Source: Orbicella franksi (taxonomy: Eukaryota). From it: 64,000 nucleotides of DNA. The position numbers were made by a program, and so were the translations under genes. Each line of letters begins with the position of its first letter. Positions within the stretch are counted from its first letter, which is position 1. The stretch spans positions 2,480,001-2,544,000 of the forward strand of contig OZ116707.1 in NCBI GenBank assembly GCA_964199315.1. The letters are read 5' to 3'. Positions 37,152 through 37,333 of this stretch are shown here, piece by piece. The notes below the pieces were generated by a model. It had not been told where the DNA came from. It did no database searches and saw nothing but the letters and a program-made list of their open reading frames with translations.

Positions 37152-37333
37152 AGTAGTATAGTGGGAGGTAAACAAATACTATTTCAAAGAGGGGGCTGCA
37201 TTTAACCATTTCACAGCCCCCAGCTTCATCCGGCCTGAGCCTGTGAGGGCCGGACTTGAATGTGGGGGCTGTTATAAGGTAAAATAAAGCCCCCTCTGCG
37301 AAATGGTATTTGTTTACCTCCCACTATACTACT
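37152..37333. repeat. 182-bp terminal fold-back (inverted repeat) at the Polinton right end
   Basis: Perfect 28-bp arms agtagtatagtgggaggtaaacaaatac (37152-37179) / gtatttgtttacctcccactatactact (37306-37333), extending to 46 bp with 3 mismatches. Inner stems acagccccc/gggggctgt and tccggcc/ggccgga. Confidence 0.95.

Follow-up and report, generated by a model that had tools for sequence, protein, structure and literature searches.

A long terminal palindrome with a conserved C/T mismatch at both ends of a coral Polinton family

In the standard model, Polintons replicate by protein priming combined with end-to-end pairing, and we know of no demonstration of how a Polinton leaves the chromosome or begins to be copied. 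As far as their accessible text goes, descriptions of Polintons, Mavericks and adintoviruses report (AGT)2 tips, terminal inverted repeats (TIRs) of some hundred bases and target duplications of 5–8 bp, together with a protein-primed polymerase (pPolB) carrying a terminal-protein (TP) domain and a vOTU domain, an rve integrase, an ATPase and a capsid protein (PMC8097293, PMC10748475, PMC11131425, 10.1101/697771, 10.1101/2024.03.18.585575). The accessible part of a 2026 preprint on Halocafeteria describes terminal palindromes next to target duplications in protist virophages and Polinton-like viruses, and proposes hairpin priming. According to the excerpted text of PMC1185569, the left end of MVM is an imperfect terminal hairpin with one small asymmetry that leaves one arm as the active origin and the other inactive, in a single flip orientation; MVM is a single-stranded virus that uses the HUH nickase NS1, and its asymmetry is a GA/GAA spacer present at one end only. 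Poxvirus flip-flop telomeres contain terminal-hairpin mismatches that are essential and conserved as structure; as described in the consulted sections, these ends are covalently closed, occur in flip and flop forms and have a role in packaging (PMC8956199). The panhandle ends of bidnaviruses and adenoviruses combine a protein-primed polymerase with ITRs that pair end to end, and bidnavirus termini are described in the consulted sections as free of palindromes and hairpins (PMC4938981). Here we describe a Polinton end in the coral Orbicella franksi and compare it with these systems.

The window analyzed is the whole 64,000-bp stretch of contig OZ116707.1. At 37152–37333 it contains an imperfect palindrome of 182 bp with the tips AGTAGT...ACTACT, in which 28 base pairs from the tips are perfect and the first 46 arm positions are mismatched only at 29, 35 and 36. 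This geometry agrees with the preliminary description. The predicted DNA fold has −70.5 kcal/mol (z −15.9), with an apical loop at 37237–37246, and none of 200 shuffled sequences was equally stable. The palindrome is a terminal fold-back that forms the outermost part of the right TIR, and its + strand is the 3'-end strand. The outer arm (37306–37333, − strand) is the true terminus, with a 5'-AGTAGT repeat that corresponds to the Polinton (AGT)2 end motif, and the inner arm (37152–37179, + strand) is a second copy of the terminus, perfect over its 28 bases and pointing outward. Just beyond the perfect arms, the inner T29 (37180, + strand) stands opposite the outer C29 (37305, − strand), which reads as G on the + strand and so gives a G.T wobble on the 3'-end strand. 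The inner, non-palindromic part of the TIR (36789–37151) matches the left end of a sister element at 90.7%, although the first 10–100 bases beside the hairpin are hypervariable across the family.

The flanks of the hairpin are GTTGTT and GATTAT, and no target duplication surrounds it, as had been noted earlier, because it is a single end of a long element whose left part was lost at about 27647. The host flank GATTA (37334–37338, + strand) is presumably half of a 5-bp target duplication whose partner was lost, judging from the exact duplications of 41 of 53 element pairs described below. We also considered an assembly artefact. Two metagenome contigs (L377 and L408) run through the entire hairpin and on into the same host sequence, with identities of 97.6% and 98.2%; three public runs also yield contigs that together cover it as overlapping pieces, none of them extending from one side to the other. 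Therefore, the hairpin is not an assembly error. An Rfam search of the hairpin gave sub-threshold matches only. About 12% of one poly(A) RNA run was read and yielded one read, with none on the hairpin, which shows neither expression nor silence.

The hairpin closes a GC-rich island (about 52% GC versus about 38% in the host) whose similarity to full elements starts at 27647 and extends to the right, with no left end inside the window; 27647–37333 is thus a left-truncated Polinton remnant with ATPase, rve and pPolB matches. The pPolB gene (32723–36667, − strand) is split into three ORFs (35897–36667, 35170–35865 and 32723–35194), and the assignment is supported in the family by a match to Pfam PF03175. 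An rve integrase lies on the + strand at 31742–32726 in two pieces (31742–32113 and 32400–32726), a fragment of which matches PF00665 at E 0.0011, under the curated cut-off, and an A32-like packaging ATPase is found at 28929–29528 (+ strand; PF04665, E 1.7e-7). The gene at 27671–28921 (+ strand) is a probable capsid gene, a lead based on feature matches of 0.97 to clusters with 10–24% capsid families, at low recognition. No maturation protease family was matched among 13 ORFs scanned from two other copies, and a Pfam scan of 26 ORFs, of which 11 from the window and 13 from sister copies belong to the family, found no HUH family, with many ORFs left without an assignment. With TIRs within 100–1500 bp, AG/(AGT)2 tips, a duplication of 5–8 bp, a pPolB with terminal-protein and vOTU domains, a packaging ATPase and the sub-cut-off rve match, the family fits the Polinton/Maverick type.

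Two other features were observed elsewhere in the window. At positions 39815–64000, an 8,207-bp unit that contains a hAT transposase ORF is present in three head-to-tail, 100% identical copies, which looks like either a very recent duplication or an assembly duplication. A second inverted repeat at 10411–11252, with 92-nt arms of 85% identity lying 658 nt apart, is probably a MITE.

To place the hairpin in the genome, we searched for the end pattern AGTAGTAT-N155-175-ATACTACT, which occurred at 159 places versus 2 for the reversed control. We gathered 157 hairpins from the fetched loci, one orientation tie being settled by eye from the flank. All 157 have Polinton DNA of the family on one side only; since none has element DNA on both sides, a concatemer junction was rejected. 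In 53 cases a left and a right hairpin bracket an element of 7.0–22.6 kb (median 15.8 kb), and the hairpin adjoins the target duplication at both ends. The duplication is exactly 5 bp in 41 pairs, where 6 bp had been expected, has one mismatch in five in 9 and is exactly six bp in 3, with at least four of five bases matching in 50 of the 53. Past the hairpin, the TIR continues inward for 195 to at least 1400 bp (the limit of the comparison; median 315 bp) at 98% identity. Independently, we examined 99 sites of a motif from the TIR interior. A hairpin of the collection adjoins 78 of them, an eroded full hairpin 18 and a hairpin with a partly deleted inner arm one; the remaining two are truncated, so that no intact end without a hairpin was found.

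These results show that the hairpin is the normal tip at both ends of one coral Polinton family. The proposal of a virus end with a built-in hairpin origin or telomere therefore stands as far as position is concerned, and the hairpin is genuine and in all likelihood functional. Two other suggestions made at the outset did not hold: members of the family share the length, position and polarity of the hairpin, which speaks against a one-off snap-back product, and none of the 157 hairpins is a solo flanked by a 5- or 6-bp duplication, as a minimal non-autonomous mini-Polinton would be. The two hairpins of an element also form imperfect direct repeats, but pop-out between them was likewise rejected, since it should produce solos, of which there are none. 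At C13:3241293-3241676 and 3256732-3257115, and also in L332, two different family hairpins stand in tandem, 23 bp apart, probably because one element inserted just inside the end of another. In viral contigs, 120 matches to the pattern were at chance level, with at least 12 of 20 arm bases paired in only one, a simple repeat, and three protein scans found no relative.

Next, we compared the two arms in 139 ends, after 18 segmental duplicates had been dropped from the 157. Positions 9–28 were paired in 98.1% of cases versus 75.0% after shuffling, and 474 of the 508 outer-arm variants at these positions were matched in the inner arm. Perfect arms of 41 distinct types were found among 95 ends, and the hairpin measured 177–188 bp in 138 of the 139. 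We also built a tree from the TIR-interior DNA of 50 elements (three duplicates dropped), on which recombination among copies may inflate the counts of change: eight variable sites in 10–28 showed 7–17 letter changes with 0–1 losses of pairing. This shows that the two arms co-evolve.

Position 29 behaves differently, a feature that the preliminary description had overlooked. It is C in the outer and T in the inner arm in 132 of 139 ends, in 17 of 18 further ends from the TIR-interior motif sites and in 91 of 101 oriented metagenome ends (119 matches were examined; 18 that could not be oriented or had no arms were left out). It did not change on the tree, on which eight other mismatch sites switched between paired and unpaired 10–16 times, and its neighbours 28 and 30 co-vary between the arms. 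The outer 29–30 context is CG in 73 and CA in 53 of the 139 ends, and the presence of the mismatch in both contexts indicates that CpG decay is not its explanation. Diverged subfamilies (L347, L351, L369 and L394) with rewritten, near-perfect arms retain C29/T29, and one such subfamily adjoins a PolB of 51–67% identity. On the 3'-end strand position 29 is a G.T wobble, and the fold of this strand is the more stable one in 123 of 139 ends; mismatches other than 29 show no G.T preference on this strand (138 versus 187). A diverged 192-bp hairpin at L383:301-492 shares the first 25 bases of the family and has no flanking duplication. In place of C/T at 29, it carries a one-base bulge near position 27, which may be another polarity mark.

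We also analyzed orientation. The loop is in the flip orientation in 147 of the 157 hairpins, unclear in 7 and inverted in 3, and a full flop of loop and position 29 together occurred once (C3:18174209). The 50:50 flip/flop state of parvoviruses is therefore absent. In AAV, terminal resolution is symmetric, and such a process does not fit the near-fixed orientation seen here. In one element the loops of both ends (C10:29298043 and 29314744) are inverted while C remains outside, indicating that the constrained feature is the polarity at 29, not the loop. Several candidate flops were rejected: C12:15057260 is T/C at 29 and flip elsewhere, the metagenome end L364 proved to be flip, and in L310 and L329 the loop is inverted but flanked by nearly perfect arms, a situation in which short-read assembly cannot fix orientation. 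The DNA just inside the hairpin is highly variable in length, with indels beginning at the junction. It is identical at both ends in 41 of 49 elements, and one element has a 10-base duplication across the inner junction at both ends. G-rich purine runs (GGGA repeats) lie directly inside the hairpin in several subfamilies (e.g. L032, L093 and L111), where a quadruplex or triplex is possible.

These ends resemble those of the Halocafeteria type, in which the palindrome also lies inside the TIR and adjoins the target duplication at both ends. However, the palindromes of the protist are 52 nt (subtype 5), and that of the coral, an animal, is about 182 nt. The former occur preferentially with replication genes other than pPolB, whereas the coral family encodes a pPolB with a predicted terminal-protein fold. 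In its accessible part, the preprint reports no arm co-evolution, polarity or mismatch, unlike the fixed mismatch and single orientation found here. The coral ends share with the MVM left end an imperfect hairpin with one asymmetry, but they occur at both ends, differ by a substitution and belong to an element with a protein-primed polymerase, an integrase and no HUH family among the 26 ORFs. As with the rolling-hairpin telomeres of parvoviruses, the terminal palindrome can fold back with a free 3' end, but equal flip and flop forms are absent. In contrast to poxvirus ends, the palindromes are open, joined to host DNA and nearly all in one orientation. They share the protein-primed polymerase and panhandle-capable TIRs of bidnaviruses and adenoviruses, but have local hairpins in addition.

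The PolB of the family, represented by a natural member of 1,311 residues (P0001), contains a predicted terminal-protein fold, a vOTU domain, a C2H2 finger, a Vsr-like nuclease and the exonuclease/polymerase. The predicted model of residues 110–230 (pLDDT mostly 76–93) resembles little-finger domains of Y-family polymerases (Z 8.1 and 7.2; rmsd 2.8 over 95 aligned residues for the better match), a fold that has been described, in the portion of that literature available, for Polinton terminal proteins. It is followed by an OTU match (Z 4.4), whose Cys and His are kept in all 10 homologues shown. This modelled terminal-protein fold suggests that protein priming is likely retained in the hairpin family.

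Based on the position at both tips, the co-evolving arms, the fixed polarity, the absence of solos (0/157) and the predicted terminal-protein fold, we propose, with a probability of roughly 0.6, that the palindrome is a fold-back telomere in which outer C and inner T at position 29 mark the sole arm used by the priming and integration enzymes. Protein priming would begin at the outer AGTAGT and displace a single strand, the 3' end of which would fold onto itself (about −78 kcal/mol) and so form a duplex copy of the terminus locally. The 3'-OH at the base of the stem would then be protected, and could serve to prime or repair the second strand with no need for end-to-end pairing to occur first. 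Such a palindrome would, however, create a second, outward-pointing terminus, identical for 28 bp, that needs silencing; if used, this inner copy would produce ends of the flop type or release a 182-bp parasite by excision. The arms first differ at position 29, where the duplex has C29 versus T29 and the folded strands have G.T in one and C.A in the other, and this difference could let the machinery ignore the inner copy. Template switching within the hairpin and end-to-end copying may keep all four arms alike, and selection would reject lineages that lose the mark. There is a precedent in the MVM left end, where, in the excerpted account, one asymmetric spot silences one arm (PMC1185569). In phage phi29, protein priming is almost lost when the non-template strand carries a 5' overhang or a 5' hairpin, according to the consulted part of PMC4150772, which argues against the folded 3' end itself as a good protein-priming origin. 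This favors a fold-back that serves protection, repair or self-priming, with the C29 arm as the place where priming or integration is licensed. No strand-changing joints were found in three contig sets and one RNA run, which are data poorly suited to show replicating forms. Against the fold-back telomere, sister families with younger copies manage without a hairpin.

An alternative, which we consider unlikely, is rolling-hairpin replication, in which the folded 3' end primes itself and the Vsr-like domain of PolB nicks at the T.G wobble, opening the hairpin or releasing the provirus from a cruciform. The insert before the PolB exonuclease has a predicted Vsr-like fold, and among solved structures E. 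coli Vsr is its top match, ranking first in Foldseek at E 1.2e-3; in VIA, 104 residues align with Z 8.5 and rmsd 4.2, a tie with a RAP-type chain (Z 8.6). Asp, His and Cys residues of its motif are invariant in 47 homologues, as in a Vsr fold with catalytic Asp/His and a zinc motif; Pfam assigned no family to the domain, and a sequence search against solved structures gave nothing useful. Vsr nicks 5' of T:G mismatches, as stated in the consulted part of PMC3239194, and a Vsr-like insert has been reported, in the available portion of the source, for marine pPolBs. The invariant mismatch is T.G on exactly the 3'-end strand, and the inner junction, the expected priming site of a folded 3'-OH, is exactly where the indels and the one tandem duplication lie. 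The presence of the domain and the wobble in one element is a striking coincidence, yet the motif is also present in 19 of 20 PolB loci of hairpin-less families, and homing endonucleases that cleave paired DNA share the Vsr-type fold, as far as the source excerpts go. In addition, when the steps are traced, a nick 5' of T29 followed by copying gives either a flop end 28 bases short or an erased mismatch, neither of which is the rule, and the modelled terminal-protein fold is retained. A hybrid cycle, which is quite improbable in our estimation, would join both ideas: the ends would self-prime as parvovirus-like hairpins, the Vsr-like nuclease would read the T.G wobble and open or release the end asymmetrically, and the terminal protein would re-prime only the C29 arm.

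We then turned to other Polinton families of the genome, of which 20 PolB loci were fetched. Their ends also begin with AGTAGT, but the first 185 bases fold at only −8 to −23 kcal/mol (20 ends, 12 pairs), and two families have no hairpin. Therefore, the hairpin is not a general Polinton feature but lineage-specific. The target duplications of these families are 6 bp in 12 of 12 pairs, in contrast to the 5 bp that accompany the hairpin, which hints at a different integrase, and the accessible part of the Halocafeteria preprint ties palindromes to particular rve integrases. The hairpin could thus be an integration or excision signal only, with a stem that offers the rve integrase the 3' end to be transferred (a rabbit-ear end) or marks the cut in host DNA, and with adenovirus-like protein priming for replication. 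The comparison of duplications covers only two to three families, however. Retroviral-type integrases need only short duplex ends, which also weighs against this explanation, and we give it little credence.

In these hairpin-less families we also observed an element at C7:22255557-22274240 (L410, L409) that is one giant palindrome as a whole, with two halves of about 9 kb, 99.7–99.8% inverted identity, PolB at both ends and the 6-bp duplication ATTCTT; it looks like an integrated copy-back genome, and a pair near C4:14530312-14546882 is similar. The first 200 bases of hairpin-less TIRs (L411–L427) contain repeated CCAATCAG, CACGTG and TGACGTCA words, which we take to resemble host transcription-factor sites, as in adenovirus ITRs.

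A neutral relic is very unlikely. In this explanation, one ancient snap-back duplication of the terminus was tidied by quasi-palindrome correction and end-to-end copying, and template switching would indeed account for the arm co-evolution without selection. Single C/C or T/T ends do exist (7 of 139 ends and 10 of 101 metagenome ends are not C/T; one element has T/T at its left and C/C at its right end), and CpG decay can yield T/T, given the CG context noted above. We infer, however, that these exceptions at single ends are changes after insertion. A neutral process should erase position 29 like other mismatches, but none of 50 elements has it paired at both ends, whereas for 16 other common mismatch sites 11–43 of the 50 do, so that the relic is largely refuted; the co-variation of 28 and 30, the narrow range of length and the lack of an intact uncapped end also oppose it.

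Other metagenome contigs contain free-standing fold-backs of 173–194 bp with AGTAGTATA...TATACTACT tips and exact 6-bp duplications (L331:896-1079, L344:45-217, L345:860-1053, L362:1590-1766 and L389:301-474), which are candidates for true mini-Polintons with an inside unrelated to the hairpin family. Although such elements exist, a composite in which two mini-Polinton (MITE) copies cap a core, like insertion sequences in a composite transposon, is scarcely credible, as they resemble the family only at the tips fixed by the pattern (alignment scores 18–47 versus 131–368 for family members), no solos are found, the inner junction has no duplication and the TIR continues inward.

Terminal palindromes were known from protist elements, and the fixed mismatch is apparently without an earlier report. 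The accessible text of coral, vertebrate and nematode Polinton surveys does not mention a hairpin or palindrome, and full-text literature searches turned up neither a long hairpin cap nor a fixed mismatch in any pPolB Polinton, although Repbase entries and the preprint's supplements may describe such ends. The present family indicates that a protein-primed animal Polinton can additionally carry long hairpin telomeres, and the differences found naturally across more than 150 ends point to a single base pair as strictly constrained. This brings Polinton ends together with parvovirus and poxvirus telomeres, whose hairpins follow an asymmetric logic. The natural C/T, C/C, T/T, flop and loop-inverted ends are ready controls for the study of Polinton ends, and the position-29 hairpin gives the Vsr-like domain found in marine pPolBs a first candidate substrate. 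If the hybrid cycle were true, a DNA-repair mismatch nickase would act as a telomere resolvase, and would possibly be the missing excision enzyme of the Polinton provirus.
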